Source of the DNA: a virus
IMG/VR virus record: IMGVR_UViG_3300044984_001421
Span: 21,368-85,367 of that record
DNA: 64,000 bases
Direction: 5' to 3' (one strand)
Positions 12,481 through 38,674 of this stretch are shown here, in pieces (position 1 is the first letter of the stretch; each line of letters begins with the position of its first letter). Under the pieces are notes generated by a model that was not told the DNA's origin, searched no databases, and was given only the letters and a program-made list of their open reading frames with translations. The position numbers and the translations under genes were made by a program.

Positions 12481-13310
12481 GTTTTCAAATCATTAAGGAA
12501 CCGCTCGACCATCTTTTTCGCCTCTGTCGCATCCATCCCGAACGTGTCAGAGACGAACTTAGTGAGCGAAGCAGGGTCGCGCTTGGGGAGAATGCTGCTG
12601 TCACGACTACGCAACATGCCAGCAAGCTTGTTGCGGAATACGTTGTAAACACCGTCATCGAGTGACTGCGCACGCAGCGCACCGCCGCCCGTCAGCGTCG
12701 CGGAATCGGTGCCGTAGCCAGCCTCAAGACCTTTCAGGACGAAAGCGTTCATGGACTTGGCGAAGACACCGAATGGCGATGTCGAGACGTTTGGAATGTG
12801 CTGGTTGACCGGCGTGCGAGACAGCGCGACGTTTGACCATCTCACCTTTTCCACACAGGTGACCGCGTTCTTGGTTTCAGGATCAATCCGGGTGGACTTC
12901 GCCAGGACAGAGCCACCGACAGACGGATACCAGCGCGCAGGCGGCGAAAGCTCGGTGAGCGACGCCCATACCATGTTCGCGTTTGCAGCCAGGGCTGTGT
13001 CACCCTTGTAGAGTTGCGCCTTGACGAAGGTCGTCTTGTCGTTGATCACGACATCGGTCGGCATGCCGATTTCATAGTTCTCCGGATTGGCGATTCCAGA
13101 ACCGGTGCGCTTGCCGAGGATGGTCAGGTGGTCAAGGTCGACGTTGCCGTACTTCTTGTAGAACTCGGCAGACTCGGCCAGCGCTTTCGACAGCACGCGC
13201 TCGCCTTGCTGGTCGATGCCTTCATTGCTGGCTTCAAAGAAGACGAAGCGCTCGCCGCCAATTTCATGCGGCGTCGCCTTGAGAAAGTCGAAGGCAATGA
13301 AGTCGTTCAT
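12465..13310 (-). CDS. Prohead maturation protease
   Basis: EASNEGIDQQGE...VDLDH...EIG...YPSVGG...NVALSRTPVN resembles HK97/Herelleviridae-type His/Ser proteases. Confidence 0.8.
   Translation of the reverse strand: MNDFIAFDFLKATPHEIGGERFVFFEASNEGIDQQGERVLSKALAESAEFYKKYGNVDLDHLTILGKRTGSGIANPENYEIGMPTDVVINDKTTFVKAQLYKGDTALAANANMVWASLTELSPPARWYPSVGGSVLAKSTRIDPETKNAVTCVEKVRWSNVALSRTPVNQHIPNVSTSPFGVFAKSMNAFVLKGLEAGYGTDSATLTGGGALRAQSLDDGVYNVFRNKLAGMLRSRDSSILPKRDPASLTKFVSDTFGMDATEAKKMVERFLNDLKTWRRK
12592..12607 (-). promoter_or_regulatory. Variant late promoter inside the protease gene, upstream of scaffold and capsid
   Basis: GTCGTGACA-GCAGCAT: one mismatch, conserved A and T retained. Confidence 0.55.
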
Positions 13311-13942
13311 TATTTACCACCAGCCTTGTCATAGGCTTCTTTGACCATCTTTGTTTCAGAGCCAAATTTCGGATTGGCGTGATGGATCGTGAGTTCGTTG
13401 TTCTTGAATGTGGCGACATGCCCGTCCTGGTGGACCATGACGTCATGCTTGTCGCCATCCATAAAGCCCATCTTTCCCTTGTGGACGCGCCAGCCTTGAT
13501 CTCCCATGGCATCCATGGTGTCGACGTGCCGACCGCCGCCAGTCCGCATCGTGACGACTGTCTTTCCGTCAGCCCCAGACTTCGAATGAACCCACCCAGC
13601 ATCCTCTGCTTCATTGCCACCTGTCAGGCGGCTTTGAAGGTCAGAAACAGCCTTCGGAGGGGTGATCGAGTTGCCTTCAGGCTTTTTCGCTATGTGGCTT
13701 GACGAATCTTTTCCGCCATTGGCAAAAATGTAATTGCCGACGTGGTTGGTGCCAGACCAGGCATGAACAACGCCTTTCTTCGCATCCTTTTTGAAGTCGA
13801 CGTTTCCGTGAACGGACTTGACTCCGGATACCCATTCGTCATGAGACATCTTCGTGCGTTTGTCGTCGTGAGCCTGAACGACAGCGCCATCCTTCCGGGT
13901 GTACGCATCGATATGGCTCTTGAGTAGGGTGAACTGATTCAT
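13310..13942 (-). CDS. Putative virion-packaged internal protein with an N-terminal LLKSHIDAYTRKDG tag
   Basis: MNQFTLLKSHIDAYTRKDGAVVQAHDD start after AGGAG RBS; His/Lys-rich. Confidence 0.7.
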   Translation of the reverse strand: MNQFTLLKSHIDAYTRKDGAVVQAHDDKRTKMSHDEWVSGVKSVHGNVDFKKDAKKGVVHAWSGTNHVGNYIFANGGKDSSSHIAKKPEGNSITPPKAVSDLQSRLTGGNEAEDAGWVHSKSGADGKTVVTMRTGGGRHVDTMDAMGDQGWRVHKGKMGFMDGDKHDVMVHQDGHVATFKNNELTIHHANPKFGSETKMVKEAYDKAGGK

Positions 13943-13965
13943 GCACGGCTCCTGAATATGGAGCC

Positions 13966-13981
13966 AGCATTGCGTCACGAC
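13966..13981 (-). promoter_or_regulatory. Putative late promoter
   Basis: GTCGTGACG-CAATGCT. Confidence 0.7.
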
Positions 13982-16900
13982 TTAGAACATGGATGCCTGC
14001 GGCTGATCAGTCTTTGGCTTGATGAAAGACGCAATCCCTGTGTCGTCCAGCCCATCCATCGGGTCGGTCATAAACTCGCGCAGCATGTGCTTCTTCGCCA
14101 GGCGGTCGCGCGCAGCCTTCTCGGATTTGTGATTGGCAACAACATCCAGCAATTCGACGTTGTTCTTCTGTCCGAGCCGGTGGATTCGCGCATTGCGCTG
14201 ACCGTGGACCATGGCGGTATTCGGCGAGTCGTGCTGGATAAGCCAATTTCCGCGCTGGAGGTTGAGTCCAACGGCTGCCGCGTCAGACGCGACCATGATG
14301 TCCGCCGATGCTTCTCCGCTCTCCGGGTTGAACTGCTTGCGCTTGGCATCCTTGTCCTGCGCCGAGTCAGATCCGGTGATGGTGACGACGCGATGGCCGG
14401 CAGCCTTCAGGCGCTTCTCGATTTCAGCAACGGCAGCGCGACTGTGCGCGAACACAACGCCGGGCTTGCCTTTGCGCGCGCCGACCAGTTCCATGACCTT
14501 GTCGATCTTGGCGTTATCCGGGTGAGTGTTGATGATGCGCGATGCGGCGGATTCCTTGATGATGCCAAGCGACTCCTGGATGTTCTTGGCGATCGCTTCG
14601 TGCTGTTCTTCCGGTACCCCGTCGAAGGAGTCCGGGCTGATCGCCTTGCAGGATGCGACATCGACCTTGCCGGCCGTTTTTGCCGCCTTGGCTTTCGACA
14701 TCGACTTGTCGAGCGCAGCAAGTGCTGACTTCTGGCCGGCAGACAGTTCGACTTGATGGACTTCATGCTGCGCGTCGACGTCTGGCGCGATAGTGTTTGA
14801 GATTACGTGGCGGGCCATTTCGCGCTTTAGCGCAGCCTTTGCAGCAATGGTGTCGCCGCCGTACTTGCGCATGAATGCTGCGCGGTCTCCGTAACGCTCG
14901 CGGTCCATTTTCGCCATGACGTCGTGAATTTCAGAACTGTCGTTCTTGATCGGATCGCCAGATCCGTAGACGTGGTATTCGGCATTATCAGAGACGGCAT
15001 CGATCACGTTCGACCGAGCAGAATTCTCCTTTCCGGCACGATTTACGATCTGGTGCGCTTCATCGACCATGGTAGCGTCGAAGTTCATGCCTTCCTTGTC
15101 CATCACTTCCTTGGCCCAGGTCTTGCGCTCGGCCGGCGTCATGGCAGACAGCTTGGCGTTCATTTCTGACTCGGTGATGCCGGCGTGCTTGGCACCCAGG
15201 TGCTGCATGTCGGCGCGGAACGATTCGTGCGTCATCACCGCGAAGTGATGGTCCGGATTCTTGTAGGCGGCAATCCGCTCTGCCTGCGACGCGCCCGGCT
15301 GACAGTGCCAGTTGAACTTGCCAGGCTCCAGGTAGCGCAGAGCCTCGCCGCCAAATTGCCCCTGGACGACAGAAGGCACCAGCATCAGCGCCCGCTTGAT
15401 CTTGCCGGTTTCGTGCAAGTGCGAGAACGCGCCCAGGTAGATGCCGGTCTTTCCGGAGCCGGCACCGTAGGACAGAACCGTCCGCTTGTTGGCTTCGATG
15501 TGCTTGATGGCACGCTGCTGCGGCGTGTACTTGTCGTTCATCGACGGCTGCCACAGCTTCGTCGGATGCCCTGGTTTGAAGTTCTTCCCGACCACCGACA
15601 TCATGCCGGCGATCTGCTGCTCGGCGGCATGGCCCAGCGTGTGGCGTTCGTCGGCCCCCAGCGGAACCTTTTTCCCGGCGTCAGGAAGATGGTCTTCTTC
15701 GGTCGAGAAGAAACCCATCTGCGACTGTTCGAATGCCGCCTTGGCTTCCTGCTGCGCCTCGATCTTGTCTGCAACAGATCCTGATGAGTACTTGCCACCG
15801 GCACGCTCGCGCAGAGAATCCACCAGCGCGCGATGCGATTCCTCACGCTTGGCACGTGCGGCAGGATCGACTGCATCCAGGTGGTTCAAGTTGCCAGCGA
15901 TAACCGTCTTGCCGACCTTGAGCGGGTTCTTCTTGTTGAGCGTGTTGTGGACTTCTGCAAACTTGCTGACAACATGGGAGCGGACCAAGTCCTGCACCGA
16001 CTTGATGGCATTCTCCGGGCTGCCCATGATGCCGACGTACTTGTTCCAGTCCAGGCCGGAAGAACCAGCAACCTGCGACAGTTCGTCACGCTTGGCATTC
16101 CAGGCTGACCACTCCGGCGTCGTGGACGTCTCGCCGAACATATCGACGGATTCCTTCTCCGGCTCGTTGGCAAGGTGCGCCTCATGTTCGTCGCGCGCCG
16201 CCTTGCCGGCTTCGTCCACTTTCGCCAGATTCTCGTTGAACCACTTCCGGAGTCCAGTGCGCTCCTGCGCAGACAGGTCGCCGATGGGCTTGAACGCTGC
16301 GACACCTTCCGGCGTTTCAGACAGCGCACGATGCAAAGCATCGACGGATTTCTGGTTGATCTCGATCTTCTGCCGATGCAGCGGAGAGCGGTCGCCGCCC
16401 ATCTTCCCAACATAGTCGTCGGCCATTTTCTCGAACTCGCCAGCCAGGCTCTCGACCGGGCGCATCTTGCCGTCTTCACTCTTGAGCGGAGCAACAGAGT
16501 CGAGCGCAGCACGGTAGGCTTCAGGGTCGCCAGACTTGGCATGGAAGTCGCCAGACTGGATATCGGCCAGGATGTCTGCGGGTGAATCGCCGTCTGCCGC
16601 GCGCCCGCCGATGTAGTCGCGGAGCGATTGCGCCAGGTCAGCGCCAGGCTTGAACGGTTGCGCCAGGCGTTCAGCGACGCCAGGCTCTGCCTTCATCGCA
16701 AGATCCGGCCGGTTGGCAAAGCCCTTCGGCAGCCAGCCGTCCTCGTCATGCTTTCCGGAGATGATGTCCATGTTCCGGCTGATCTGCTTCATGCCTTCGA
16801 CATCAACAGGCGCAGCAAGTCGGTCCAGACCTTCACCGGTAATCGTGGTGACAAGGTTCCCGTTCACTGATTCCAGCTTGTAGTCGCCAGACTTCAGACC

Positions 16901-19129
16901 GAGCGCGTGCAGTTTGGTAATCGCCGACTTCGGGTCCACCTTTCCGAGCGACACCTCGACATGGTCCTTCGCGCCTTCGCGTAGCGCCATCACCAGCGAC
17001 GCGCCGGCCTGCAGTTGACCGGTTGCCTGCCCGAGTACGCGCTTGGCCTGCATGACGGCTTCCCGGCGCTTGTGATTGGCTTCTTGGGCGGTTGCCAGGT
17101 CGTATCCGGTTTTGCCTTCCGGCATTTCGATTTCACCAGCGGCGTCGGCGAGTTCGCGCGCCTGCTTGACGGCATTCTGCTGGATGTCGTTCTGTGACTG
17201 GACGTGGTAATTCTCGGCACCTTGGCGGATGCGGTCCAGGTCGCCGGCTTCGTAATCCTTGTGGATGCGGCGGGCAATGATCTGCGACGCGGCACTGATG
17301 CCGAGAACGTCAACCACCGAACGGTCGATCATCGAGTCACCGGCTGCAGCCTGGGCGAAGGCGTTCAGCGCGTTGAATGCGCCGGCTCCGACGTGACCGC
17401 CAAGCGATTCCTCGCCGCCCATCTTGTCGATCTCTGACAGCAGGCCGACAGCGCCGATGGTCTTGATGTCCTGCTCCATCTGTTTGCGCGCGGCGTCTTC
17501 AACATCGGCATCCGACACTTCGAGGATGTGCGCCTTGGACTCAACCACGGAAGCGCCGTCCAGTTCCATGCTGGCATGACGCGCGGCCATTTCGAGCATC
17601 TTCAACTTCTTCTGCGCCTTCACCAGCGCGGCAGCTTTCTTGGCGTCGTCCAGCACCTTCGGCTGCGGCTTGACCGTTTCCGGATTGGCGAGCTTGAAGT
17701 CTTCTACCTCTTTGGCGATGCCGGCAGCCAGGTCTTTCTTCTCGGCAGCCTTCGACGCCTGCGCAGCCAGTTCATCCGGCGACTTTGCATCCGCGCCGTG
17801 GACATTGGTCAGTTCCGCCTCGACAGATTCCGGAGTCAAGCCTTTGTCTGCCGCGCGCTTGCCGAAGTCTTGCGAGAAGCCCAGGCCGGGCGTCTTTTCC
17901 GGCATCGGGTCGAGGTCGGCAACGGAAATCTGGTCCGGGCTGGGGTCGGTCAGCGGGATCTCTCCCAGGCCGGATGCCGCGAGAGCTTCGTGGTCTTCGA
18001 CCAGATTCTTGCGGTTCATTTCAACGGCAGCCTTGGCGCGATGGAAGATGTCCTTGTCGTGTTCCTTGCGGGCTTTCGCCTGGGCTTCTTCGGACAAGCC
18101 GGCGTGCGCTTCTTCATCGAACGCCAGCGACTTGTCGTCCCAGCCCATAACGTCGGCGACCGTCTTCACGAATTCCTCGCGCTGCTTCTTGACCGACTCC
18201 TTCAGCGCGCCCTTCTCGGCTTGCTTCTGGTTGTGTATGCCGGCTGCCTTGTCGGCTTCGATTTGCTTCTTCTTGGCTTCCTGCCGAGCCTGCCCGCGCT
18301 GCTTGATGGAGTCCTTGTAGGACTCGCCGGTCTTCACCGAGCGCAGCTTAAGATGGTTCAGCGCGCCGCCCGCGCCGCCGATGACGCGCATCGAGCCGTC
18401 TTCGTGCGGCATAACCAGAATCGGGCTGCCCTTCGCGCCTGGGTGCGAATGAACAGTGACCCAATGTGCCCCGGCAGGGATGGGACCGTGCTCGGATTTC
18501 AGCATGTGCTGACCGAAGTCTAGAGAATGATCAAAGTCAACTCGGGCAACTCGGGTAACCGGGTCAATTACCCGATTTGCCCGGACTTCCGCCTTCACCA
18601 TCCGCCCGTCAGCCGCCAGCACCTTCTGCTTGAATTCCTCCACCGGCATAGCCGTGACCGGACCAAGGAAACGAGGGTCGTCGTAGTGAAGCAGGTAGGC
18701 GCGCTCGGCTTCTTCCTGGCTGGCAAATTGGAGCATCGCCTTGTCCTCGTCATACCGATCCCATGCGCCTGCCTTGCGCTGGTGGATGATGTAGACCATC
18801 GGCGCGGTTTCATCCGGCCCGAGGTAGCAATCCACATGGTCACCGTCGACACCCAGGCTGGACAACACATAGCCGTAGGGAAACACCATCCGCGTCCCCC
18901 AGGCGTGACCGTCCCGATCAACGCCACGCCGGAACGAGCCGGCCTCGTTTTCAATCGAGATGGTCAGGCCATTCCAGGCGACCTTGCGCTTGCCGTAGTT
19001 CCCGGCCTTGATCTGCGCCGGGGTCGGCTCATGCGGGAAACGGTAGACGGCGTTCTGAGTCTCAGCCTTCGCCAGCGGCGTGCCGACGAAAGCTGCAATG
19101 TGACTACGGAGTGCGGATAGAGAGTCCAT
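13982..19129 (-). CDS. Large polyvalent protein: N-terminal inorganic pyrophosphatase-like domain and C-terminal SNF2/SWI2 helicase (DarB-like)
   Basis: AGNY...ISIEN...YGY...DGDHVDCYLGP...DEDK; helicase motifs GAGSGKT, DEAH, GLNLQ, QRNARIHRLGQ. Confidence 0.82.
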   Translation of the reverse strand: MDSLSALRSHIAAFVGTPLAKAETQNAVYRFPHEPTPAQIKAGNYGKRKVAWNGLTISIENEAGSFRRGVDRDGHAWGTRMVFPYGYVLSSLGVDGDHVDCYLGPDETAPMVYIIHQRKAGAWDRYDEDKAMLQFASQEEAERAYLLHYDDPRFLGPVTAMPVEEFKQKVLAADGRMVKAEVRANRVIDPVTRVARVDFDHSLDFGQHMLKSEHGPIPAGAHWVTVHSHPGAKGSPILVMPHEDGSMRVIGGAGGALNHLKLRSVKTGESYKDSIKQRGQARQEAKKKQIEADKAAGIHNQKQAEKGALKESVKKQREEFVKTVADVMGWDDKSLAFDEEAHAGLSEEAQAKARKEHDKDIFHRAKAAVEMNRKNLVEDHEALAASGLGEIPLTDPSPDQISVADLDPMPEKTPGLGFSQDFGKRAADKGLTPESVEAELTNVHGADAKSPDELAAQASKAAEKKDLAAGIAKEVEDFKLANPETVKPQPKVLDDAKKAAALVKAQKKLKMLEMAARHASMELDGASVVESKAHILEVSDADVEDAARKQMEQDIKTIGAVGLLSEIDKMGGEESLGGHVGAGAFNALNAFAQAAAGDSMIDRSVVDVLGISAASQIIARRIHKDYEAGDLDRIRQGAENYHVQSQNDIQQNAVKQARELADAAGEIEMPEGKTGYDLATAQEANHKRREAVMQAKRVLGQATGQLQAGASLVMALREGAKDHVEVSLGKVDPKSAITKLHALGLKSGDYKLESVNGNLVTTITGEGLDRLAAPVDVEGMKQISRNMDIISGKHDEDGWLPKGFANRPDLAMKAEPGVAERLAQPFKPGADLAQSLRDYIGGRAADGDSPADILADIQSGDFHAKSGDPEAYRAALDSVAPLKSEDGKMRPVESLAGEFEKMADDYVGKMGGDRSPLHRQKIEINQKSVDALHRALSETPEGVAAFKPIGDLSAQERTGLRKWFNENLAKVDEAGKAARDEHEAHLANEPEKESVDMFGETSTTPEWSAWNAKRDELSQVAGSSGLDWNKYVGIMGSPENAIKSVQDLVRSHVVSKFAEVHNTLNKKNPLKVGKTVIAGNLNHLDAVDPAARAKREESHRALVDSLRERAGGKYSSGSVADKIEAQQEAKAAFEQSQMGFFSTEEDHLPDAGKKVPLGADERHTLGHAAEQQIAGMMSVVGKNFKPGHPTKLWQPSMNDKYTPQQRAIKHIEANKRTVLSYGAGSGKTGIYLGAFSHLHETGKIKRALMLVPSVVQGQFGGEALRYLEPGKFNWHCQPGASQAERIAAYKNPDHHFAVMTHESFRADMQHLGAKHAGITESEMNAKLSAMTPAERKTWAKEVMDKEGMNFDATMVDEAHQIVNRAGKENSARSNVIDAVSDNAEYHVYGSGDPIKNDSSEIHDVMAKMDRERYGDRAAFMRKYGGDTIAAKAALKREMARHVISNTIAPDVDAQHEVHQVELSAGQKSALAALDKSMSKAKAAKTAGKVDVASCKAISPDSFDGVPEEQHEAIAKNIQESLGIIKESAASRIINTHPDNAKIDKVMELVGARKGKPGVVFAHSRAAVAEIEKRLKAAGHRVVTITGSDSAQDKDAKRKQFNPESGEASADIMVASDAAAVGLNLQRGNWLIQHDSPNTAMVHGQRNARIHRLGQKNNVELLDVVANHKSEKAARDRLAKKHMLREFMTDPMDGLDDTGIASFIKPKTDQPQASMF

Positions 19130-19135
19130 CAGCAC

Positions 19136-19151
19136 ATCGTGGCGTCACGAC
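19136..19151 (-). promoter_or_regulatory. Putative late promoter, leaderless (ATG 19129 at predicted +1)
   Basis: GTCGTGACG-CCACGAT-GTGCTG-ATG. Confidence 0.7.
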
Positions 19152-19157
19152 ACAGGG

Positions 19158-19760
19158 CTATTTGTTCTTCGAACCGGACCCGTTGTTCGCCGTGTTGACT
19201 GCGGCGTGACCATTTGCGTAAGCATGGTGCAGAGCAAGCTGCAGGCTGCGCTTGCTTACGTCATGGAAGTCTTTACGATCAGAGCCGCCCTCTTTCAGTG
19301 TGTCGAAATTGGCGAAATGCTTGGCAGCATCCTTCACCGAGTTGTCACGGTGAACACGCAGCGCGGGATTATTGCCACCAGCGCCCGCGTTGTAGGCATG
19401 TTCGAGAGCGCGCTTCGTGCTTACCTTTCCGGTGTCAACGAAGTCATCGTCGTCATGCCCGACTTCTTTGAAACCATTAACGCCAAGGTGCTTCTTTCCG
19501 GCTTCCTTGGCGGCAGACTCCATCGCATCTGATTTGCCGGCAGCATGGACAGCATTCATCACATCCGCGTGATGTTTGGCAAACCTCTCGTCATCAAGGA
19601 TGACGTGGTGCTTTCCGCCGTTCTTTACCTGAAAGCCGCCATGCTTGAACGGAGACGTTGTGAACGCAGCCTGCCGTGAATCATCATGCGCCTGCACCAC
19701 AGCGCCATCCTTGCGCGTGTAAGCGTCAATATGCGATTTCAATAGGTCGAACTGGTTCAT
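19158..19760 (-). CDS. Tagged putative internal protein with two DUF6900-like repeats
   Basis: MNQFDLLKSHIDAYTRKDG; two copies of KH......D..DF.D......AL.HAY..G. Confidence 0.7.
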   Translation of the reverse strand: MNQFDLLKSHIDAYTRKDGAVVQAHDDSRQAAFTTSPFKHGGFQVKNGGKHHVILDDERFAKHHADVMNAVHAAGKSDAMESAAKEAGKKHLGVNGFKEVGHDDDDFVDTGKVSTKRALEHAYNAGAGGNNPALRVHRDNSVKDAAKHFANFDTLKEGGSDRKDFHDVSKRSLQLALHHAYANGHAAVNTANNGSGSKNK

Positions 19761-19783
19761 TTTCGGTTCCTTTAAGTTACCGC

Positions 19784-19799
19784 ATCGTGCCGTCACGAC
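19784..19799 (-). promoter_or_regulatory. Putative late promoter
   Basis: GTCGTGACG-GCACGAT. Confidence 0.7.
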
Positions 19800-19815
19800 A
19801 GCCGGCCTTGATAGA

Positions 19816-19893
19816 TGGAGCCGAAGACAGGAATCGAACCTGTGACCTGCCGATTACAAATCGGCTGCTCTCCCAGCATAAAGCTACTTCGGC
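19816..19893 (-). tRNA. tRNA-Thr(UGU) with encoded CCA
   Basis: Acceptor stem GCCGAAG/CTTCGGC, anticodon arm GCCGA-TTTGTAA-TCGGC, T arm ACAGG-TTCGATT-CCTGT, 3' TCCA. Confidence 0.92.
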
Positions 19894-19896
19894 ACA

Positions 19897-20049
19897 TACG
19901 GGATGCGACAGGACGCGGCACGCTGGATTTAGACACCTTCCGACTCGGCACCAGCACACCCGGAGCTACCCGGTCTTGTCTATTCCGCCCCTTCTAGCTT
20001 TTCAGGGGGCCGTAGAGGTCGGCTATCGCCGGCCTGTCGCATTTCGTAT
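19897..20049. ncRNA. Candidate structured RNA of about 150 nt closed by a stem of about 17 bp
   Basis: ATACGGGATGCGACAGG ... CCTGTCGCATTTCGTAT terminal inverted repeat; no credible ORF. Confidence 0.4.
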
Positions 20050-20632: not shown

Positions 20633-21516
20633 TAGATCCGGTGCAGCTTGGTCGGGTGGAAGTCTTTGCCGCTGTAGGTCTTCACCGATGAACCGACGTG
20701 TTCCATCACTTCGTGTTCCTTTCCGAAGTTGTCCTTCACCTTGTCGCCGCGACGGAAATAAGCGCCGTACTTCTGGTGCTCTTCGTGACCAACATCGCCA
20801 GGCTTCGGAACGCGCTGGTCGTCGTGCGCCTGAACTACCGCGCCGTCCTTCCGAGTGTAGGCTTCGATGTGCGACTTCAGGACTTCATGGTCTTCGTCGT
20901 CTTCGTCGCGGTCTTCATCTTCGTCGTCTTCGTCATGCGGAGACAGATCGGACTCATGGTACGAAGCCTTGCTGCCGTCGCTGTGCTTGACGATGTGGAA
21001 GTGACCGCTCGGCGCGGTTTCTTGGATCACGCCGGTTTTACCTTGACCGTTGACCTTGCCGGTCACCTTCACCGAGTCGCCTTCTTTGTGCGTTACCGTC
21101 TTTTCTTCGGCGGCAGCGGAATCATCAATGGGCGCATGGTAGCGGGCATAGCCGTAGCCTTCGGTATTCACAAGATGACGCCCACCATCCTTGTGCTTCA
21201 AGACAAAGTGCTGCGGAGCATTCTCGGCGAAGTCCTTATCGAAATCTGACCCGGCCGGGCTTGTTTTCCCGGCGTTCCCGTAGACCTGTTGATGCGAGAA
21301 TTCAGGAGCGCCATCCGGGATGTCGCCGGCTGGGATTTTCTTCGTGTCGCGCGACCACTCGGTGTCCTTCGACATGAACTTGTCGTCGTGTTTTTCAGCG
21401 ACAGCACGGAGGTCGACCTTCTTGGTGCGCTTGTCATCATGCGCGTTCACAACGGCACCATCCTTGCGCGTGTAGGCGTCGATGTGGCTTTTCAACAGAT
21501 CAAACTGGTCGGTCAT
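20632..21516 (-). CDS. Tagged putative internal polyprotein (two tags; KOW/SH3-like modules)
   Basis: LLKSHIDAYTRKDG at the N-terminus and VLKSHIEAYTRKDG internally after an acidic linker; GDSVKVTG...GKTGVI is KOW-like. Confidence 0.72.
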   Translation of the reverse strand: MTDQFDLLKSHIDAYTRKDGAVVNAHDDKRTKKVDLRAVAEKHDDKFMSKDTEWSRDTKKIPAGDIPDGAPEFSHQQVYGNAGKTSPAGSDFDKDFAENAPQHFVLKHKDGGRHLVNTEGYGYARYHAPIDDSAAAEEKTVTHKEGDSVKVTGKVNGQGKTGVIQETAPSGHFHIVKHSDGSKASYHESDLSPHDEDDEDEDRDEDDEDHEVLKSHIEAYTRKDGAVVQAHDDQRVPKPGDVGHEEHQKYGAYFRRGDKVKDNFGKEHEVMEHVGSSVKTYSGKDFHPTKLHRI

Positions 21517-31335: not shown

Positions 31336-32559
31336 TTACTTCATGCCAGCCTTGCTGATGACATCGTGATCTGCTTCGCTATCCAGATACAGATGAAGAT
31401 CTGACTCTGGAACAAGATGCGCTGCCTGGCTCTCCCAGCCAACGTCCGCAGGCGTTCCTCCGACACGAACCGCATGATAGTAGCGTGTTACAGATGACGT
31501 CCGGTCGACGTCACAGGCATAGCCTACGATCTTCACCTTCAGGCCGGATTCTTCGAACACTTCCTTGATGGCATTCGCCTGCCAGGACATCTCGTCCTCG
31601 ATTTTCCCTTTAGGGAACGTGTTTTTATAGCCGCCGAACTGGTTGGTCGGAGACACCAGCCAGACACGACCATCCGGCTCTTTGATGATGCAGCCTGATG
31701 CCGGCTTGAGTCCTTGCTTCAGATGCATGACAGGCTCGTCCAGGTCTTCCATCTGCCCTTCGACGTAATCCCACTCTTCGTCGGTCTTGGGATGATCCAG
31801 CCAGGGTGACAACGCGAGTCCGTTCAATTCGTCCGGGCAAGCGCCACCAGGGATGAACGTCGCCGTCTTCTTCTGGTCGTGCCAGGTTTCAGGCGCAGTC
31901 TGATGATTCGGGTTGTAGATCCCGACCGGCTTACCGTTGTCGCCGTTCTTCGGGTGGTAGACCTTGGGCGGCGCTTTCGGCAGCGTGTGGAACAGGAACG
32001 AGCCGCCACCCATGCCGTACTGCGGCGCGACAATCTTCTGGTGCGGCTGCGTACTCAGTTTCTTGATCTTGCCGGAGTCGGTGTGCTTGATGCGGAACAG
32101 CGATCCTTGGCGCTCGTAGTCCTTGACGACCGTGCCGTCCTTCTTTGTGTGACCGTGGACGTGCGACTTCGCCATCGTCTCGCCACCGGCAAGCATTTTG
32201 TCTACTGCCTTCTTTGCGTCTTCAATGCCGCCAGGATTCGCCCATGCCTGCGCACGGTAGTGGTCAGAGGACTTCTCTCCGGTGGATGGGTTGACGACCA
32301 GTTTGTAATCATGCCGGTCGAGTATCTCGAACACCGTGGTAACAGTTTTCTTCGTGCCAGCCTTCATCTGCCCAAACACAGATTTTGTTGCCTTTTTCGA
32401 GCCTTCACGCTTGAACACGCGCAACCGAAAGCCACGATACGGCTCGCCGACGTTGTGCTCAGTTCTTGAGTCCTCATGGGCGCGAACGGCTGTGCCGTCT
32501 TTGCGCACAAAGCCGTGGACGTGCGACTTCAACAACCCGGAGTCGGTGACAACGATCAT
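31336..32559 (-). CDS. Tagged polyprotein ending in a NUDIX hydrolase domain
   Basis: Two tags (LLKSHVHGFVRKDG, MAKSHVHGHTKKDG); Nudix box FPKGKIEDEMSWQANAIKEVFEESGL; ATGA overlap with the upstream gene. Confidence 0.85.
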   Translation of the reverse strand: MIVVTDSGLLKSHVHGFVRKDGTAVRAHEDSRTEHNVGEPYRGFRLRVFKREGSKKATKSVFGQMKAGTKKTVTTVFEILDRHDYKLVVNPSTGEKSSDHYRAQAWANPGGIEDAKKAVDKMLAGGETMAKSHVHGHTKKDGTVVKDYERQGSLFRIKHTDSGKIKKLSTQPHQKIVAPQYGMGGGSFLFHTLPKAPPKVYHPKNGDNGKPVGIYNPNHQTAPETWHDQKKTATFIPGGACPDELNGLALSPWLDHPKTDEEWDYVEGQMEDLDEPVMHLKQGLKPASGCIIKEPDGRVWLVSPTNQFGGYKNTFPKGKIEDEMSWQANAIKEVFEESGLKVKIVGYACDVDRTSSVTRYYHAVRVGGTPADVGWESQAAHLVPESDLHLYLDSEADHDVISKAGMK

Positions 32560-33050
32560 GCCGGCATCCTTTCTTCTGCTCCCATCAGAACTTTGACCGC
32601 GTACTGCAGCGACGGCTTGAGCATCACACCAAACAGCATGTCGTCGCCATCGGCCAGCTTCCACTTCTCGATAACCAGCGCAGCCAGCCAGTCGAACAGG
32701 ACCGCGACAGGATCATCGGCGAACTCATGCCGGTGAGCATGCCAATGCGGTCCCAGGTCAATCTTCAGCTTGTTGCCCAGCGTGAAGTCGTTATAGCCAT
32801 TGATGATGCTGTAACCAGGGTCACGCCCGGAGAAGATGCCGGCCAGACGGGTGATCTCAGAGCCAAGTTCAGCATGCGCAGAATCTCCCGGAACCTCTCC
32901 GGAAGACGCTGCCATGGCAATCGCTTCAACCTTGGCGGCGAATCCACCAACCAAGCCGGCGACTACATCAGGATTGCCAAGACTGGTCGCGCTTGACGGG
33001 TCCGAGAAGGCTCCTGGCGATACACGATAACGGTCTCTTTCTTGTCCCAT
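32556..33050 (-). CDS. Hypothetical protein between the kinase/ART polyprotein and NUDIX
   Basis: AAGGAG RBS; overlaps the 3' end of the giant gene. Confidence 0.6.
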   Translation of the reverse strand: MGQERDRYRVSPGAFSDPSSATSLGNPDVVAGLVGGFAAKVEAIAMAASSGEVPGDSAHAELGSEITRLAGIFSGRDPGYSIINGYNDFTLGNKLKIDLGPHWHAHRHEFADDPVAVLFDWLAALVIEKWKLADGDDMLFGVMLKPSLQYAVKVLMGAEERMPA

Positions 33051-36000
33051 TCCGAATTACTCCTTAACGATTTCGCCAGCGTCTGGCCTTTAAGTTGAGC
33101 CACGAAGCCAGTGTCTGGCGGCAGCATGATAACGTCGATGAATACGCCTTGCGGGTGGTTGTGACCGCCAGGCTGAACATCGACTACCAGATACCGCTGG
33201 CCCGGCAACGTTGTCAGTTCGCCCTCACTGCCGAGAGAGCCTGTGCCATACGTCGGCGTTGCTTTGCACCCTGCCGCGCAGCGAATCCGCATCTTGATCT
33301 GCTTGCCGTCCCCGTTCGTAAAGTGCGGCGAGTCGCCCCAGCTTTCGTGGAACGAGGTACACATCGAGTCCGTGTTCTGCAGTATAGCGCCCGGCTTGGT
33401 GGCGAGAAGCTGCTTGGTCATCGACTTGCCAGCCGTGTCGTCGTCCATCCATCGCCACATCTGCGTGCCTTCAGGAAGATCCACAGCGTCGTCGTAGATG
33501 CCAGCCGTCACCTTGTTGATCGGCGTCGAGTCGTATGACGACTTGCCATGCGACCACAGATGGTTTGCAGCACCAGAACCCTGCACACTTGAGATGTAGG
33601 TCTTGGTCGTGCTCCTGACCTTTTGATAGGCAGCCTTGAGCATTCCAGCGAACGATGTTCCTGACTTCTGCCAGAACCACTTCGTCCTTTTCAACAACGC
33701 GACAGCATCGCCTTCATCGATCTGGCACAACTTCATGAAGTACCCGAGACGGTGCTCCTGCGGGATTGTCGTCACGTTCTGGCCTGGCGCGAAAGAACCG
33801 ACCGCATCGGCAATCTCGCTGACCAGACCGAAGCTGCCAAGCGACGGCATCTCCAATGTTTCGACAGGAGGATAGCCAATCGACTGCAGCGTCTGGACCA
33901 GCGACGCCCACTGCTGCTGGATGTGGTTGGAAGGATGCTCTGTAATCGGCTTCTTGCCGATGGACTGGCCGGTCTCCTTGTCCACCGCGTCGTAGTGGTA
34001 ATCCTTCAACGCCTTCAGGTTGCCTTGCATGGCGAAGGCTGCCAGAGCCGCGCTGTCGGCGCTGTTTTTGTCGTTGACGTGCTGCTTCGAAGATACCGGC
34101 TTTCCGCCGTTCAGCGTGTTGAAGTCAAGCGGCGGCTTGATGTCGGCCGGGTCGACGGTCAGCTTTGTCTCATCGACCGGAGGCGTATCCCACTGGTCGA
34201 CAATTCCCATCTGCTTCAGGACGTCAGCGCGCCTGGCAATCAGCTTCTTGGCAAGCGCGGCCTTTTCCGCATCCGTGCCAGGCCCGGCAATTTTGCAGAG
34301 TTCTTCGATTTGCGACGGCTTCAACTTGTTCAACTGCTTGCCACCCCAGGCAATCGATGCGTCCGTAGCGCCGGCAAAGACCGCCGCAGCCTTGGCGTTC
34401 TTGCCGTAGTCCTTCATGGTCTTCAACTCGGCAACCGTGTCGCCGAAGTCCGCGCCCTTCTTGCCGCCCATGGCACGGTAGTCGAGCGAACCGCCCACGT
34501 CGATGCGGACAGCGCCGCCTGAACTGTTGAGCAGCAGGTTGTCGTTCGCCATGCCGACGACATCCCAGTTGCCGATCCAGGCGTCGATGGCGAATGCCTG
34601 GTGTGCGCCAGCTGCGCTGGCAAGATTCTCAGCGCTGCCCTTCTTCATCCCATCAACCCACTTCGAGGCGATACCCAGCTTGCCGTCCTTTTCGACCAGC
34701 TTCAGCGTCGGAACATCGACGCCAAGCATCTGGTAGAACTTGGCAGCCAGGAATTCGCTGCGCACCATTTCGGCGTCGGCCGGGAACTTGCAATACCACT
34801 CCTGCCCGCCTTTGTCCTTGAACTTTCCGCCAGGGTTTGAACCCAACTGCGGACCAGTCTGCGGCCAGGAATCCATTACCGAAACGTGGTCGCCAAGCTT
34901 TGACTTGGCAATCGAGATCGGCGCTGCCGGTTCAACTTTGTGCCAATGGCCGTTTTGGAACACCAGCATGCCATCCGCGCCCTGCTTGGTATCGCCGTCC
35001 TTCGGGCTGGCAGATTGAGCGGCAGTAGAACCCAGTGCAGCGGGGTCAACGCCTTCTGCTTCCGGATCGAACTTGCCAAGCGCAGCGGCATGCATTTGCT
35101 GGCAGAACTTGTAGAACTGTTGACGACGAACAAGCGTCGAGATCGATGTACATTTTCCTGTTTTGAATCCAGTGACGTTTTGCTTCGCCGAAACAGAGCC
35201 GTCGTTGTGGAAAGTGACGTACTGCTTCAACCCTGTAACTCCGCCATTCAATACTGCGTTCTTTATCGCAGTCGAGATGTTGACGTAGATTTTTGAGTTT
35301 TGATGCGGATCAAGCGTCTCGTAATCCGGTACCGGAACTGCCGCTATCTGCTGCGCCTTGGTCAGTTTTTTCTTCTTCTTGAAGACGATGACAATCGGCG
35401 GAATCTCGGTGGGTATTGGCTCGAAGCCGGAAGAGCCGACATAGCTGTAACCGTTTGCGCCCTTCATTCCGACCAGCTTGATCGCAGCCTTGACCGCCGC
35501 GTCGTTGCTGGCATGGACTTCGTCGCCGCTGTGGCCTTTCTGCCCGATCTTGCCGTAGGTCTTGGTCAAAACAGTGCCATGGACCTCGACCTTGTAGAAC
35601 TTGTTGTGCCCTGGTTTTTTGTTTTCCATGTGCGCAATCCACTTGTACCCGGTGGCAGGCTGCGCAGCAGGAGCCGCAGGAGCTGCAGCCACACCCTTGA
35701 TCTTGTCCAGCATTCCGGAATCCGGCATGTGAACGCCGAACATCTTGTCCAGCGTGTTGCGGACGTCGTTTTTGTCGAACGCGGACCATGGGCCAGAACC
35801 GCTACCATCGGCATCGGATGTGCCAATTTGGTACTCTTTCAGGTCATTGTCCCAGCCCACATAGATGGTTGATGTGGCTGTGTGCTCAAGCAGGATCACG
35901 TTGTTCCCGCTGAACCCTTCGTCGTTCATCGACACTTGCCAGGTGCCGGATGGCGCAGGAGCATCGGACGCTGCCGGCTTGGCCGATTCCTGCTCGGCCT

Positions 36001-38674
36001 TTTCCTTCAGAAACTCCTGCTGTCCATTGGTCAAAGAATGCCAAAGCGCCCACATGGTCTTGTCCGTGTTGTCGGTCTGCGGCATGCCAGCCGAGATCCA
36101 CAACTTGAGCGCGTGCTCGTCTTCAGCAGACACATTGGATGGAGCAACCTGCAAGTGCCAGCGACCGTTGAACAGGACGTAGTTCTTGCCGTTGATTTCC
36201 TTGACGTCGCCCTCTTTCGGCCCGCCTTCCTGCGTTTTCTGGCCTGGATGAAAGGCCAGGTTGAGCATCTTTATCGGGTCAGCGCCTTCGTTCTGGACAG
36301 CAACCTCGACCGCAAGTTCATAGGACGCTGAGTGCATCGGCGGCGATGCGGGAGCAGGAATCTCGCCGGCCAGCATCGAGAACATGGCAGCCTTCCAGCC
36401 GTTCTTGCTGTAATCCTGTCCGGTCAAGATGTTCTTCCAGGAGCCGTCCTTCTGCTTCTGGTAGTTGTGCCCTTTGTACGAAGCGTTCACCGCCATCTTG
36501 CCAGCGGCAGCATCCATCTTGCCGGCCGTTTGCATGGCCTGGTCGAGCGCGTACATCGGAGAAGACCAGCCGTCGCCGTCCAGTTCATCGTCGATGAACG
36601 ACTGATAGAAGCCATCGGCAGTCTTGACGACCTTCACATGGTGCCCGTTTACGTTGTCGAACAACACAGTCTCGCCGGCAGCAGGAGGAACGTCAGGCAT
36701 TACCGGAGCACCGACCTTGCCGCCTTGTTTCTTGTTTTCCGCCTTCAAGTGCTGGACTGCCGTCTTCAACGCGGAAGGTTTCAGCCCTGCGTTGTTCGCC
36801 AGAGCCGTAACGACACGCTCCAGCGCTTCACTCGGAACGTGGGCGAGGACCGACATATGATCAATCACGGCGTTGATTGCTTCCTGCGACGGCATGTCGG
36901 GAGTGGATGGCTTCGAAGCTGCAAGCCACTGCTCTCCTGCCTTGTCGATCAAGTGACCAACTTTATCCAGCCCATGCTTGGCAATCGCCGCACTTATGTG
37001 CTGCTGGCCGTTCAGTTCCTCGTAAGTCATTGCTTCGTGCTGCTCGACAGTCGGCACCTTGCCGGCATCGAGCGAGGCGTGCCAGCCATCAACGCCAGGG
37101 ATGGTGTGCGGGTCAACGTCTGGCGCGACCTCTGATTCATGCAGCCACACGGCAACCTGCTTCGGGTTGAATCCGTTCTTTTGATACGTCCCTTGATCGA
37201 CACTGGATAGGTGGGCATACACCGTCTCGTCGGCCGAGAGCTTTGCGCCGATGGCGAGCAGATACCACTTGCCACCGTCGTAATCGACGACCTTCTTGTC
37301 GGCCATCTTCGCCTGGTATTCTGCCTTTTCTTTTTCGGCTAAAGACGGCGACTTGTGCCAACGCCCGTCCTTGAAGGTCAGCGTCCCGCCTTCGCCTTGC
37401 TTGGTGTCGCCATCCTTCGGCGAATCATCCGCTTGCAGCACCACCTTTGCAGTACCGGCAGCGAGCGCAGCGTGCAGCGTCTCCTTCGGGATTGAGACGG
37501 TGTTCTTCGGGCCAGGCACCGTCGCTCCGACCTTGTGCATCTGGTAGGAGTCTGCGCTCTGGTTGTAGATCGTCCAGTCGCCCGCGTTCATCTTGGCGTA
37601 CTGGCTGTCCAGCTTCAGCACAGCGCCGGTCTTGAGGTCCGGGTGCTTGGCAGGCTCTGGTACCGGAGCGGCAATGTTCGCGGCATTCCAGCCGACAGAC
37701 CACTCCTGCAGCGCGTCCATGTATTCGGCATACGGCAGATGGTTGTGCGCCTGCAAGAAGTCCTGGTCGATACCTGCTGCGTGCGGCTTTCCAGCAGCGA
37801 ACGCCGCTGCGCCGTATTCCTTCGGGGTCATGGGCTTCTTGTCGTTCGCATCGACATGAACAGGCGACGTGTCGCTGTTTTCCGTTTTCTTCGACACGAC
37901 ACCCATCAATGCCTCGGCCTTTTCAGCGCCAATGGCCGACTCGATATCTGTCGCCATTTTGGCGACTTTGACCGGGTACTTAGCTGCGTACTCGAAGTAC
38001 GCCTTCTTCTGGCCGGAAGTCGGCGTCTGGCCGGCGAGCATTGCCGCCTTCCAGCCCGAAACAGCAGCGGACAGCGAAGCCTCGGCCTGCAGATCGGTGG
38101 CGTGCGCCAGGACCAGCATCGCCTTGTCGTGGTCGCCAAGCGCGCCGAAGTCTTTCAGTTCCGCCGACAGCTTCTTGTGCGCGGCTTTCTGGTAGTGCGA
38201 GCCTTGGCCGTTTCCGACCTTGGCATGGTCGTGGTCGTCCGAGACGTTGACCATCTTGTGATGGGCATGGATTACCGTGCCGTCCTTCTTCACCGACGCA
38301 GGAATCCACATCTCCTTTTTCACGGTCGCCTTCAGCAAGTCCTCGGTGAACACCAGTATTGACTTGTGAATCGGCACGCCGGAAGACTTCGCGTTCTGAA
38401 CAGCCGCATGCAACTGCTCGGCGGTTGCACCTTCGCCGCCGAATAGATCGTTCGTGCATTTTTCAGGCTTCTTCATGCATTCGTCAGAGAACGGCGACGC
38501 CTTCATGGGTGGTGCTTTCGGACGGGCGAACAGATCAGACGTGTGCGCGTCCTTGGAGGCTCCGCGCGAGTTTGAATGCGGTGACACCTGGACGACGCGA
38601 CCGTTGGCAAGGCGACGCTCGTAGCCACGCACAGCGCCCTTGATGATGTCGGTGACGAAAAACATGATGGTCAT
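32963..38674 (-). CDS. Giant polyvalent protein: tag variants, three short repeats, WGR domain, PI3/4K-HipA-like kinase, C-terminal ADP-ribosyltransferase
   Basis: NKFYKVEV...YGKIGQKG (WGR); GSNPGG...WYCK...E.LA...DAWIGNWDVVG...DN...RIDVGGSL (kinase); WR...MCTS...SEGELTTLPG (R-S-E ART). Confidence 0.78.
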   Translation of the reverse strand: MTIMFFVTDIIKGAVRGYERRLANGRVVQVSPHSNSRGASKDAHTSDLFARPKAPPMKASPFSDECMKKPEKCTNDLFGGEGATAEQLHAAVQNAKSSGVPIHKSILVFTEDLLKATVKKEMWIPASVKKDGTVIHAHHKMVNVSDDHDHAKVGNGQGSHYQKAAHKKLSAELKDFGALGDHDKAMLVLAHATDLQAEASLSAAVSGWKAAMLAGQTPTSGQKKAYFEYAAKYPVKVAKMATDIESAIGAEKAEALMGVVSKKTENSDTSPVHVDANDKKPMTPKEYGAAAFAAGKPHAAGIDQDFLQAHNHLPYAEYMDALQEWSVGWNAANIAAPVPEPAKHPDLKTGAVLKLDSQYAKMNAGDWTIYNQSADSYQMHKVGATVPGPKNTVSIPKETLHAALAAGTAKVVLQADDSPKDGDTKQGEGGTLTFKDGRWHKSPSLAEKEKAEYQAKMADKKVVDYDGGKWYLLAIGAKLSADETVYAHLSSVDQGTYQKNGFNPKQVAVWLHESEVAPDVDPHTIPGVDGWHASLDAGKVPTVEQHEAMTYEELNGQQHISAAIAKHGLDKVGHLIDKAGEQWLAASKPSTPDMPSQEAINAVIDHMSVLAHVPSEALERVVTALANNAGLKPSALKTAVQHLKAENKKQGGKVGAPVMPDVPPAAGETVLFDNVNGHHVKVVKTADGFYQSFIDDELDGDGWSSPMYALDQAMQTAGKMDAAAGKMAVNASYKGHNYQKQKDGSWKNILTGQDYSKNGWKAAMFSMLAGEIPAPASPPMHSASYELAVEVAVQNEGADPIKMLNLAFHPGQKTQEGGPKEGDVKEINGKNYVLFNGRWHLQVAPSNVSAEDEHALKLWISAGMPQTDNTDKTMWALWHSLTNGQQEFLKEKAEQESAKPAASDAPAPSGTWQVSMNDEGFSGNNVILLEHTATSTIYVGWDNDLKEYQIGTSDADGSGSGPWSAFDKNDVRNTLDKMFGVHMPDSGMLDKIKGVAAAPAAPAAQPATGYKWIAHMENKKPGHNKFYKVEVHGTVLTKTYGKIGQKGHSGDEVHASNDAAVKAAIKLVGMKGANGYSYVGSSGFEPIPTEIPPIVIVFKKKKKLTKAQQIAAVPVPDYETLDPHQNSKIYVNISTAIKNAVLNGGVTGLKQYVTFHNDGSVSAKQNVTGFKTGKCTSISTLVRRQQFYKFCQQMHAAALGKFDPEAEGVDPAALGSTAAQSASPKDGDTKQGADGMLVFQNGHWHKVEPAAPISIAKSKLGDHVSVMDSWPQTGPQLGSNPGGKFKDKGGQEWYCKFPADAEMVRSEFLAAKFYQMLGVDVPTLKLVEKDGKLGIASKWVDGMKKGSAENLASAAGAHQAFAIDAWIGNWDVVGMANDNLLLNSSGGAVRIDVGGSLDYRAMGGKKGADFGDTVAELKTMKDYGKNAKAAAVFAGATDASIAWGGKQLNKLKPSQIEELCKIAGPGTDAEKAALAKKLIARRADVLKQMGIVDQWDTPPVDETKLTVDPADIKPPLDFNTLNGGKPVSSKQHVNDKNSADSAALAAFAMQGNLKALKDYHYDAVDKETGQSIGKKPITEHPSNHIQQQWASLVQTLQSIGYPPVETLEMPSLGSFGLVSEIADAVGSFAPGQNVTTIPQEHRLGYFMKLCQIDEGDAVALLKRTKWFWQKSGTSFAGMLKAAYQKVRSTTKTYISSVQGSGAANHLWSHGKSSYDSTPINKVTAGIYDDAVDLPEGTQMWRWMDDDTAGKSMTKQLLATKPGAILQNTDSMCTSFHESWGDSPHFTNGDGKQIKMRIRCAAGCKATPTYGTGSLGSEGELTTLPGQRYLVVDVQPGGHNHPQGVFIDVIMLPPDTGFVAQLKGQTLAKSLRSNSEWDKKETVIVYRQEPSRTRQARPVLAILM

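Follow-up and report, generated by a model that had tools for sequence, protein, structure and literature searches.

A putative prohead-protease site joined to a predicted hairpin forms a shared tag on unrelated head-module proteins of a myovirus lineage

Introduction

In phage T4, the capsid targeting sequence of head proteins such as IPIII and Alt is removed by the prohead protease and can carry foreign cargo, and the cargo is injected, as described in the accessible portions of two papers (PMC9024508, PMC10052503). The same portions describe DarB of phage P1, a large helicase-type antirestriction protein whose first 30 residues direct it into the head and can bring a reporter into capsids as well (PMC9024508). 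They also describe the giant-phage prohead protease SPN3US gp245, whose many head-protein substrates are cleaved at a three-residue motif with a preference for Ser at P1′, and giant-phage ejection proteins, which have long propeptides with several sites (PMC10052503). Polyvalent proteins, according to the available text of Iyer et al. 2017, are predicted to be packed and injected, and their processing by an in-built zincin metallopeptidase was proposed (PMC5512222). Here we analyze a short peptide, referred to below as the tag, that recurs on otherwise different proteins in the head module of a phage represented by IMG/VR virus record IMGVR_UViG_3300044984_001421. The stretch of DNA that we analyzed (the window) is 64,000 nucleotides long and comprises bases 21368-85367 of this 85,367-b record.

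Results

The tag occurs in six strong copies in four genes

A six-frame regex scan of the whole window for SH[IV]..[YFH].[RK]KDG..V returned six matches, all on the minus strand and all within long open reading frames (ORFs), and none in other frames or on the plus strand. The complete record holds the same six strong places and none outside the window. The copies lie in four minus-strand genes of the head module and share the consensus (L/V/M)xK-SH(I/V)xx(Y/F/H)x(R/K)KDGxxV. Their regex cores, in the order of the copies listed below, are at 13877-13918, 19695-19736, 21448-21489, 20833-20874, 32485-32526, and 32125-32166. Genes are named by their higher coordinate, and an arrow marks a predicted cut.

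13850..13942, minus strand: tag copy 1, N-terminus of the 210-aa protein (gene 13310-13942); leader MNQFTLLK, then SHIDAYTRKDGAVVQAHDDKR; regex, within-genome profile (E 3e-23), and predicted hairpin (AlphaFold2 [AF2])
19668..19760, minus strand: tag copy 2, N-terminus of the 200-aa DUF6900 protein (gene 19158-19760); regex and profile
21421..21516, minus strand: tag copy 3, N-terminus of the 294-aa protein (gene 20632-21516); regex and profile
20806..20898, minus strand: tag copy 4, internal in the 294-aa protein, with an acidic run (DEDDEDEDRDEDDEDHE) before it and a 57-aa module after it; regex and profile
32458..32559, minus strand: tag copy 5, N-terminus of the 407-aa NUDIX protein (gene 31336-32559); regex and profile
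32098..32190, minus strand: tag copy 6, within the NUDIX protein and N-terminal to the NUDIX-bearing segment; regex and profile
38576..38650, minus strand: diverged tag, N-terminus of the 1903-aa WGR protein (gene 32963-38674), DIIK↓GAVRGYERRLANGRVVQV; loose regex only
38261..38338, minus strand: second diverged tag in the 1903-aa protein, LLKAT...SVKKDGTVIHAH; profile, E 9.4e-4 within the genome

Translations and regex thus agree with a first-pass annotation of this DNA, which had reported a shared tag at the N-termini of genes 13942, 19760, 21516, and 32559 and again inside 21516 and 32559. That annotation had counted eight copies in five genes. Six of these are strong, and the two in the 1903-aa protein are weaker: SVKKDGTVIHAH (aa 113-138) scores 9.6-10 bits at the E value listed, and DIIKGAVRGYERRLANGRVVQV (aa 9-33, 38576-38650) is caught by the loose regex and not by the tag profile.

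Across all 15 pairs, the tag copies are 55-80% identical in DNA, with longest exact runs of 6-18 nt. Over a 22-codon core, the copies of genes 13942 and 19760 have 100% protein identity but 74% DNA identity and use the same codon at 8 of the 22 positions. Because identical residues are encoded by differing codons, the peptide is under strong purifying selection. The copies are old and are maintained by selection on the peptide, not by DNA identity. An earlier suggestion that near-identical tag DNA promotes recombination is contradicted by these values.

The leader ends in a candidate prohead-protease site

The tag opens with a short, hydrophobic leader that ends in Phi-x-K↓(S/A), where Phi is a hydrophobic residue; in the interpretation that we favor below, the site is Phi-Phi-K↓(S/A/T). 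PHROG matches identified three structural genes in the window, encoding the tail sheath (3499-5211), the major capsid protein (10374-11816), and the head maturation protease (12465-13310). Two of these and the gene between them bear on the leader.

10374..11816, minus strand: major capsid protein, with a predicted maturation site LQK↓S at aa 27-30 (11727-11738); phrog_752 (E 9e-87) and PDB alignment
11848..12480, minus strand: scaffold-like protein, 210 aa, with seven Phi-x-K-S sites and an acidic run followed by LGK↓SYSMERDGEKVRAYD (hairpin 12235-12282); site density and alignment
12465..13310, minus strand: prohead protease, 281 aa, with N-terminus MNDFIAFDFLK↓AT and C-terminal part VLK↓GLEAGYGTD...; phrog_1028 "head maturation protease" (E 7e-31)

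The capsid protein is 41-61% identical to its counterparts in a group of ~90-kb myoviruses that includes Pseudomonas phages Touem01, Dolphis, and Jeremy, Morganella phage Mecenats66, Bordetella phage PHB04, Aeromonas phage ST4, Enterobacter phage phiT5282EW, and Yersinia phage fHe-Yen8-01. It shows a more distant likeness to capsid proteins of Staphylococcus, Bacillus, and Listeria myoviruses. The capsid protein and protease of the ~90-kb lineage are related to those of SPO1 and Staphylococcus phage K.

Against PDB sequences, the capsid protein matched 9vel_C (E 7e-29), 5lii_P (E 9e-16), and 9row_B. Its stretch ...ELQK↓SLTAGYGTD aligns with DVVK↓SFQTGYG of the 463-aa deposited chain 5lii_P, which we take to be from Staphylococcus phage phi812. 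Chain 9row_B (439 aa) is the 5lii_P sequence from residue 25, starting at the Ser after the Lys, and this Ser is aligned with S30 of the window protein. The capsid proteins of the relatives have K↓S or K↓A at the same position.

Similar sites are dense in the scaffold-like protein, which is encoded between the protease and the capsid protein and has an acidic and Gly-rich region, long helices, and a C-terminal helical domain. It contains seven [LMIVF].K[SG] motifs, or 33 per 1000 aa, compared with 2.3 per 1000 aa over 80 window ORFs (Poisson p 3e-7). The scaffolds of nine relatives have 5-8 sites each, for example 6 in 213 aa and 5 in 257 aa when counted with [SG], and 7 in 200 aa, 8 in 223, 6 in 229, and 8 in 215 when counted with [SGA]. 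Residues K20, K67, and S68 are invariant among 10 aligned scaffolds (25-41% identity).

A Phi-x-K-[SAG] site lies within the first 35 residues of 10/10 head-block proteins (capsid protein, scaffold, protease, the four tag genes, the 1903-aa protein, an InPase-helicase, and a 366-aa protein), compared with 4/38 other ORFs (Fisher p 1.5e-7, in gene sets picked post hoc). Large ADP-ribosyltransferase (ART), methylase, and helicase proteins of the relatives have such leaders too, e.g., MLVLAK↓A, MKRLMIK↓AS, and MIILLTK↓A. Head-internal proteins in general have the cut-site leader, whether or not a hairpin follows it. Collectively, homology, site density, and leader distribution indicate that K↓S is very probably a prohead-protease site. 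Cleavage at K↓S had been proposed in the first-pass annotation; the match to the capsid maturation site, the scaffold sites, and the ten leaders speaks for it, and the cleavage itself is predicted from sequence. Nothing on Lys sites was found in the papers on 7-7-1 and on Kayvirus.

Autoproteolysis at K↓S by a Ser nucleophile was ruled out, as 51 of the 184 database tags described below have Ala at P1′ and 5 have Val or Gly there.

The C-terminal part of the protease (LEAGYGTDSATLTGGGALRAQSLD, aa 191-222, 12645-12740) repeats the N-arm of the capsid protein (LTAGYGTDVASLTGGGALRIQSLD, aa 27-58, 11643-11738). Each lies directly after a Phi-x-K site, and the same is seen in four IMG/VR relatives. 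The repeated N-arm may be how the protease is built into the shell.

The second half of the tag is a predicted hairpin

The predicted cut is followed by a hairpin of about 20 residues, H(V/I)xxYTRKDGxVVxAHDDKR. Using an input alignment of 65 N-terminally tagged proteins, AF2 predicted strands at residues 13-15 and 21-23 around the KDG turn, with predicted local distance difference test (pLDDT) values of 79-86 over residues 11-40 and a model mean of 56.7. The model is consistent with the beta-hairpin that the first-pass annotation had placed after the cut. Its description as basic is not borne out, with 5 K/R vs 4 D/E in the first 23 post-cut residues.

The scaffold-like protein has a comparable stretch after its acidic run, EVLGK↓SYSMERDGEKVRAYD..LIK↓S, and the internal tag of the 294-aa protein also follows an acidic run. 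In the AF2 model of the scaffold (mean pLDDT 58.9), the only beta element is a hairpin after K67↓S68, where pLDDT is <50. Using hhalign, tag positions 4-26 were placed on scaffold residues 63-82 as the sole match (P 0.0042, probability 8%), and the tag hidden Markov model (HMM) scored this stretch at -0.3 bits.

Among prokaryotes, surveyed as one genome per species (185,579 species), hairpin relatives were found in only eight proteins, from Planctomycetota and Acidobacteriota. All of these bacterial versions lack the LLK↓S leader; a signal peptide is followed closely by the hairpin alone, K(T/P)VHVxxYTRKDGTVVxAHDR. Because the leader is missing from the bacterial versions, we consider the leader-plus-site half to be specific to the phage setting. 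Three of the eight, which are small secreted proteins, have an HNH-type nuclease motif at their C-terminus.

The tag is a portable unit in a large metagenomic family

The 6 window tags and another 14, taken from 12 IMG/VR loci, gave a tag profile of 31 positions, which we ran against 1.84 billion representative proteins. The profile matched 889 protein clusters at E ≤0.001, of which 184 had E ≤1e-10. Among the matches listed, 184 tags scoring at least 30 bits were located in 149 non-window proteins; 116 are within the first 45 residues and 68 are internal. Their logo reads (L/F)(L/F)K-(S/A/T)-H-(V/I)-x-x-(Y/F)-T-(R/K)-K-D-G-(T/A)-(V/F)-V-x-(A/E)-H-(D/E)-D-K-R. P1 is K in 180 tags, P1′ is S in 115, A in 51, and T in 13 (S/A/T in 179/184), and P2 and P3 are mostly L or F. 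All ten clusters that we looked up were metagenomic and carried no name or "hypothetical protein."

The tag matches no Pfam, PHROG, or NCBIfam model; Pfam returned no family for the 210-aa tag protein and no relevant family for 20 tag peptides. The PBCV-specific basic adaptor domain (PF08789) matched 0/20 tag peptides, even at E ≤10, and 1/97 whole tag proteins (E 2.9e-4). A PF08789-type match in an Atlas structure search had a template modeling (TM) score of 0.59 and is a lead only. Literature searches returned nothing for the PBCV-specific basic adaptor domain and one unrelated paper for tag sequence words.

The proteins bearing the tag are diverse. In 97 scanned tag proteins, we found 19 domain families, including InPase (12 proteins), ART-PolyVal (3), DUF6900 (3), and NUDIX (2), and, in a single protein each, Zeta toxin, Peptidase_S78_2, ADPrib_exo_Tox, RadC, GNAT, and RelA_SpoT. 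Seven large tag proteins contain PBECR3 with InPase (two proteins, one also with LPD3), InPase alone (one), ddrB-ParB (two), Acb1 (one), or no match (one). These 889 clusters with many different domains bear out the earlier view of the tag as a portable unit on unrelated cargo.

The Acb1 protein (P0026, metagenomic, 1098 aa) has an N-terminal tag at aa 3-25, followed immediately by the Acb1 anti-CBASS domain at aa 27-168 (E 4e-31) and a second tag at 933-960, which hints that some phages inject Acb1 ready-made. The Peptidase_S78_2 domain (XkdF-type prohead protease) was seen in one of the 97 proteins at E 1.4e-17. Apart from it, no peptidase domain was found among the 19 families, and none was found in the seven large proteins or, by Pfam, in the six window proteins.

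Among cultured phages, the tag follows the capsid lineage. Searches of 50,697 phage records by tblastn with two tag variants returned four and six records, representing six different phages, all from this clade. The profile found tags in 7/7 relatives searched, with 1-3 copies per relative; the window phage has the highest number seen. Of five tag-bearing IMG/VR records, four encode a capsid protein of this lineage; the remaining one is a fragment with an estimated completeness of 27%. In fHe-Yen8-01, the tag protein (start MLK↓AQIKGYMRRDGVYVKPHD) and a 2146-aa ART protein are annotated as "particle associated." No virion proteomics was found in the accessible part of the Mecenats66 paper. The tag belongs to the head module and to proteins that are probably packed.

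Tags and cut sites lie at module borders

The same modules recur behind tags in different positions. In the window protein, and likewise in the database proteins P0045 and P0077, the NUDIX segment comes after an internal tag, but Mecenats66 has it behind an N-terminal one. The 57-aa module that ends the 294-aa protein is preceded by an N-terminal tag in P0028 and by internal tags in other proteins. In 16 InPase-bearing database proteins, a tag often comes within a few residues after the domain. Some internal tags retain a Met seven or eight residues before the K, like a former start, and 45 of the 68 internal tags have a second Phi-x-K-[SAG] at most 30 residues upstream. We used direct match lists here; single-linkage clustering of cargo segments placed 86 in one component and was uninformative, with several small modules per segment.

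A gene fusion in the window has the same form.

13982..19129, minus strand: 1715-aa InPase plus SNF2-helicase protein, DarB-like (phrog_10089); Pfam and PHROG

In this protein, LAK↓A (aa 19-22) and MLK↓S (aa 209-212) flank the InPase domain, and MLK↓S is also where the helicase part is joined on. Over residues 219-1705, the protein is 41% identical to residues 10-1358 of the Mecenats66 helicase. The latter starts with a nine-residue leader, MKRLMIK↓AS, and its counterpart here is ...HMLK↓SEHG. Because the match begins at residue 10 of the Mecenats66 helicase, the MLK↓S junction stands in place of the Mecenats66 leader. The first-pass annotation had suggested that internal tags separate delivered units; the internal copies do lie at module borders, with gene fusions or fissions exactly there, and cutting at these positions is plausible on sequence grounds.

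The N-terminus of the InPase-helicase (LSALRSHIAAFVGTPLAK↓A, 19064-19129) keeps the start of the hairpin and then has Phi-x-K↓A just before the InPase domain. It looks like a decayed tag (tag HMM -2.6 bits). Two database proteins, P0019 and P0049, have GTPLAK↓A and then a complete tag.

Cargo of the tagged proteins in the window

Pfam identified DUF6900 (E 7.5e-18), NUDIX (E 3.6e-10), and, in the 1903-aa protein, WGR. BLAST among the six cargo segments of the window detected no direct similarity. The cargo therefore differs from tag to tag, as had been noted, and the DUF6900 and NUDIX assignments hold; the "KOW-like" and "kinase/ART" assignments were not recovered by Pfam, NCBIfam, or PDB sequence searches. 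The 1903-aa protein had no match to PDB sequences at E 0.1, leaving kinase and ART unconfirmed. Its residues 1215-1852 are 31-34% identical to proteins of the relatives that are annotated as ADP-ribosyltransferase.

The 1903-aa protein also contains a second repeated unit, PKDGDTKQG..G.L.F..G.WHK, at aa 419-441 and 1224-1246 (37352-37420 and 34937-35005). ART-type proteins of the relatives have leader-K↓A at the start and then a stretch resembling that repeat, GY.L..GRW(H/K)K, which may be a second type of hairpin used in the same way.

Upstream of the 1903-aa gene is a further protein with a leader.

38678..39778, minus strand: 366-aa minor-head-type protein, with leader EELLK↓A at aa 9-12 and without the hairpin; leader scan and gene position

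Its position matches that of a Mecenats66 gene annotated "putative minor head protein."

The tag genes are part of the head module

On the minus strand, the gene order is 42701-44311, 40277-42406, the 366-aa protein, the 1903-aa protein, and the NUDIX protein. A plus-strand block follows at ~22-31 kb, and the minus strand then continues with the 294-aa protein, the DUF6900 protein, the InPase-helicase, the 210-aa tag protein, the protease, the scaffold-like protein, and the capsid protein. The tag genes are located between portal-side genes and the protease, scaffold, and capsid genes. The plus-strand block of small genes (~22000-31000) breaks up the minus-strand head module, and the AT skew there shifts from about -0.13 to about +0.26. 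A megablast search with 13310-21516 against the phage collection gave no match.

19788-19799, 13970-13981, 21545-21556, 19140-19151, 39789-39800, and 6315-6326, minus strand: examples of the promoter-like motif GTCGTGACGNCA; motif count

This motif occurs 14 times with at most one mismatch, compared with 2.26 expected, and 13/14 occurrences are on the minus strand (window positions 3433-58671), where they precede structural genes. It lies 28-29 nt upstream of the ATG, with a Shine-Dalgarno sequence, in genes 13942, 19760, and 21516, and ~11 nt from the start codon in genes 19129, 39778, 6304, and 8907, a spacing that suggests near-leaderless starts. No copy lies immediately upstream of genes 32559 or 38674. 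The late promoters proposed for all tag genes thus find support for three of them.

Discussion

The shared peptide is confirmed by our analysis, and the interpretation given to it in the first-pass annotation is partly supported. We consider it probable, although by no means assured, that the tag is a two-part portable cassette, consisting of a prohead-protease site and a docking hairpin, for capsid-internal and probably injected proteins of the ~90-kb myovirus lineage. The motif, its conservation and distribution, the positions at module borders, and the homology match to the capsid maturation site are observed; cleavage at the tags, packaging in this phage, docking of the hairpin, and ejection are what we infer. 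Under this model, a tagged protein would be made late and enter the core of the assembling procapsid, where its hairpin would dock, probably at the place where the similar hairpin of the scaffold docks. The phage's own prohead protease would recognize the end of the leader and trim it, leaving the hairpin as the new N-terminus, and, in fused polyvalent proteins, would release separate units by cutting at internal tags. Such units would remain in the head and enter the host along with the DNA. A bolder version, which we consider less likely than not, is that the hairpin copies the docking hairpin of the scaffold, that leader-K↓S-hairpin draws any bearer into the procapsid, and that the prohead protease also processes polyvalent proteins.

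Several points weigh against the cassette model. For every protein of this phage, the case for cleavage and packaging is indirect. The likeness between the tag and the scaffold hairpin is weak by hhalign, HMM score, and pLDDT alike and serves as a lead, and the scaffold has sites without a hairpin, so that the hairpin is unnecessary for cutting. The hairpin is also found in bacterial secreted proteins unrelated to capsids, and a general binding function is possible. The start of the 439-aa PDB chain marks only where the depositors began the chain. The gene sets in the 10/10 vs 4/38 comparison were chosen after the fact from our own ORF calls. The "particle associated" label in fHe-Yen8-01 is a database annotation, and no paper on this phage was found in the literature. 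Finally, confinement of the tag to one clade could be mere descent.

The bacterial homologs lead most directly to a different role for the hairpin. If the cut site is real and the hairpin binds nucleic acid, a metal, or a host target rather than the procapsid, it could tether cargo to the packaged DNA, so that both exit together, or act only after injection. Hairpin-only proteins behind signal peptides in Planctomycetota and Acidobacteriota, three of eight with an HNH-type C-terminal motif, would fit such a ligand, as would the conservation of both hairpin faces and two His residues; an Atlas structure search also returned small hairpins ahead of nucleases and NUDIX proteins, as leads only. 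However, the net charge of the hairpin is only about +1, the scaffold has a look-alike hairpin at a conserved cut site, and the restriction of the tag among cultured phages to one capsid lineage is a better fit to a head-specific partner. We regard ligand binding as unlikely, though it is the alternative that we take most seriously. Less credible still is an uncut tag, that is, a conserved N-terminal or linker mini-domain of a large paralogous family whose likeness to a protease site is coincidental. Cleavage is deduced from sequence, and Phi-x-K-[SAG] is short enough to occur by chance, with a background of 2.3 per 1000 aa in the [SG] form and an [SAG] site near the N-terminus of 4/38 unrelated ORFs. 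A linker does not explain why P1 is K in 180/184 tags and P1′ is small in 179/184, why the bacterial versions lack exactly the cut-site part, or why fusion junctions retain the site and the site matches the start of a capsid-protein chain.

Two further readings seem very improbable to us. The tag could be a removable signal of the T4 style, with the hairpin included in a piece that is cut off downstream and leaves the head, as the prohead protease does with the T4 capsid targeting sequence in the available text of PMC9024508 and PMC10052503. In the window copies, however, no Phi-x-K-[SA] follows the hairpin, and the only conserved site precedes it. The least probable reading of all is that the tag serves mainly as a patch of DNA homology for recombinational cargo swapping. 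Cargo modules are indeed shuffled among proteins at tag borders, but DNA identity of 55-80%, exact runs of 6-18 nt, and shared codons at 8/22 positions already largely refute it.

Injected phage proteins are usually learned one by one through proteomics. If the tag marks them, a 31-position profile would pick such proteins from sequence. Under the bolder version, the tag would be a general, programmable address label for injected effectors, and the profile alone could list the injected arsenal of a whole phage lineage. The cargo resembles early counter-defense tools: NUDIX proteins, ADP-ribosyltransferases, InPase, PBECR RNases, ParB-like nucleases, and Acb1. A compact tag could also be used to load foreign proteins into the capsids of cultivable relatives, such as the Pseudomonas, Morganella, Aeromonas, and Yersinia phages. 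Ordinary virion proteomics would be blind to K↓S cleavage, because Lys is a trypsin site as well.

Each of the known systems shares part of this arrangement. As with the T4 signal, a short N-terminal peptide on unrelated head-internal proteins ends in a (here putative) prohead-protease site, and it is found at the N-termini of four window genes and in 116/184 database tags. In the accessible text on T4, the cut is after Glu and the signal is discarded; here, the predicted cut is at Phi-x-K↓(S/A), 5-10 residues would be discarded, and the hairpin would be retained. Unlike the T4 signal, the tag also occurs inside proteins. With a cut after Glu in T4 (PMC10052503) and a predicted cut after Lys here, homology is not expected. 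Like P1, the window head module has a DarB-like InPase-helicase (phrog_10089); the available portion of PMC9024508 does not describe the P1 signal as a shared conserved tag on many proteins and reports no protease site. The giant-phage motif ends in Glu, and the propeptides there are long and family specific in the text available, compared with a common 30-residue cassette here.

The polyvalent proteins are close in content, with InPase, ART-PolyVal, PBECR, ddrB-ParB, LPD3, and SNF2 helicase in a head-gene context, as far as the accessible text of PMC5512222 describes them. InPase with SNF2 helicase is present in the window, and InPase with PBECR3 and LPD3, ddrB-ParB, and ART-PolyVal are present in database proteins. 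Unlike in that text, where a zincin-like metallopeptidase is a common although not obligatory theme, none was found here, and the inter-domain element resembles a prohead-protease site. In the text searched, that paper mentions no short motif or linker and names the prohead protease only in a reference title; its supplementary files may list the motif among 40 uncharacterized domains. If the prohead protease does act at Phi-x-K↓S/A, polyvalent proteins would have a concrete processing mechanism, unlike the metallopeptidase route proposed in 2017. Head maturation of the SPO1/phage K type, in which the capsid protein is cut after Lys, is represented in the window by a homologous capsid protein with a conserved cut position and by the cognate protease (phrog_1028). 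Capsid targeting and propeptide processing are thus a known theme, and we propose that a Lys-site and retained-hairpin cassette, used also inside fused proteins, is new. This phage would differ from the known systems in four respects: a cut after Lys, a very short discarded piece, a retained hairpin, and use within fused proteins.

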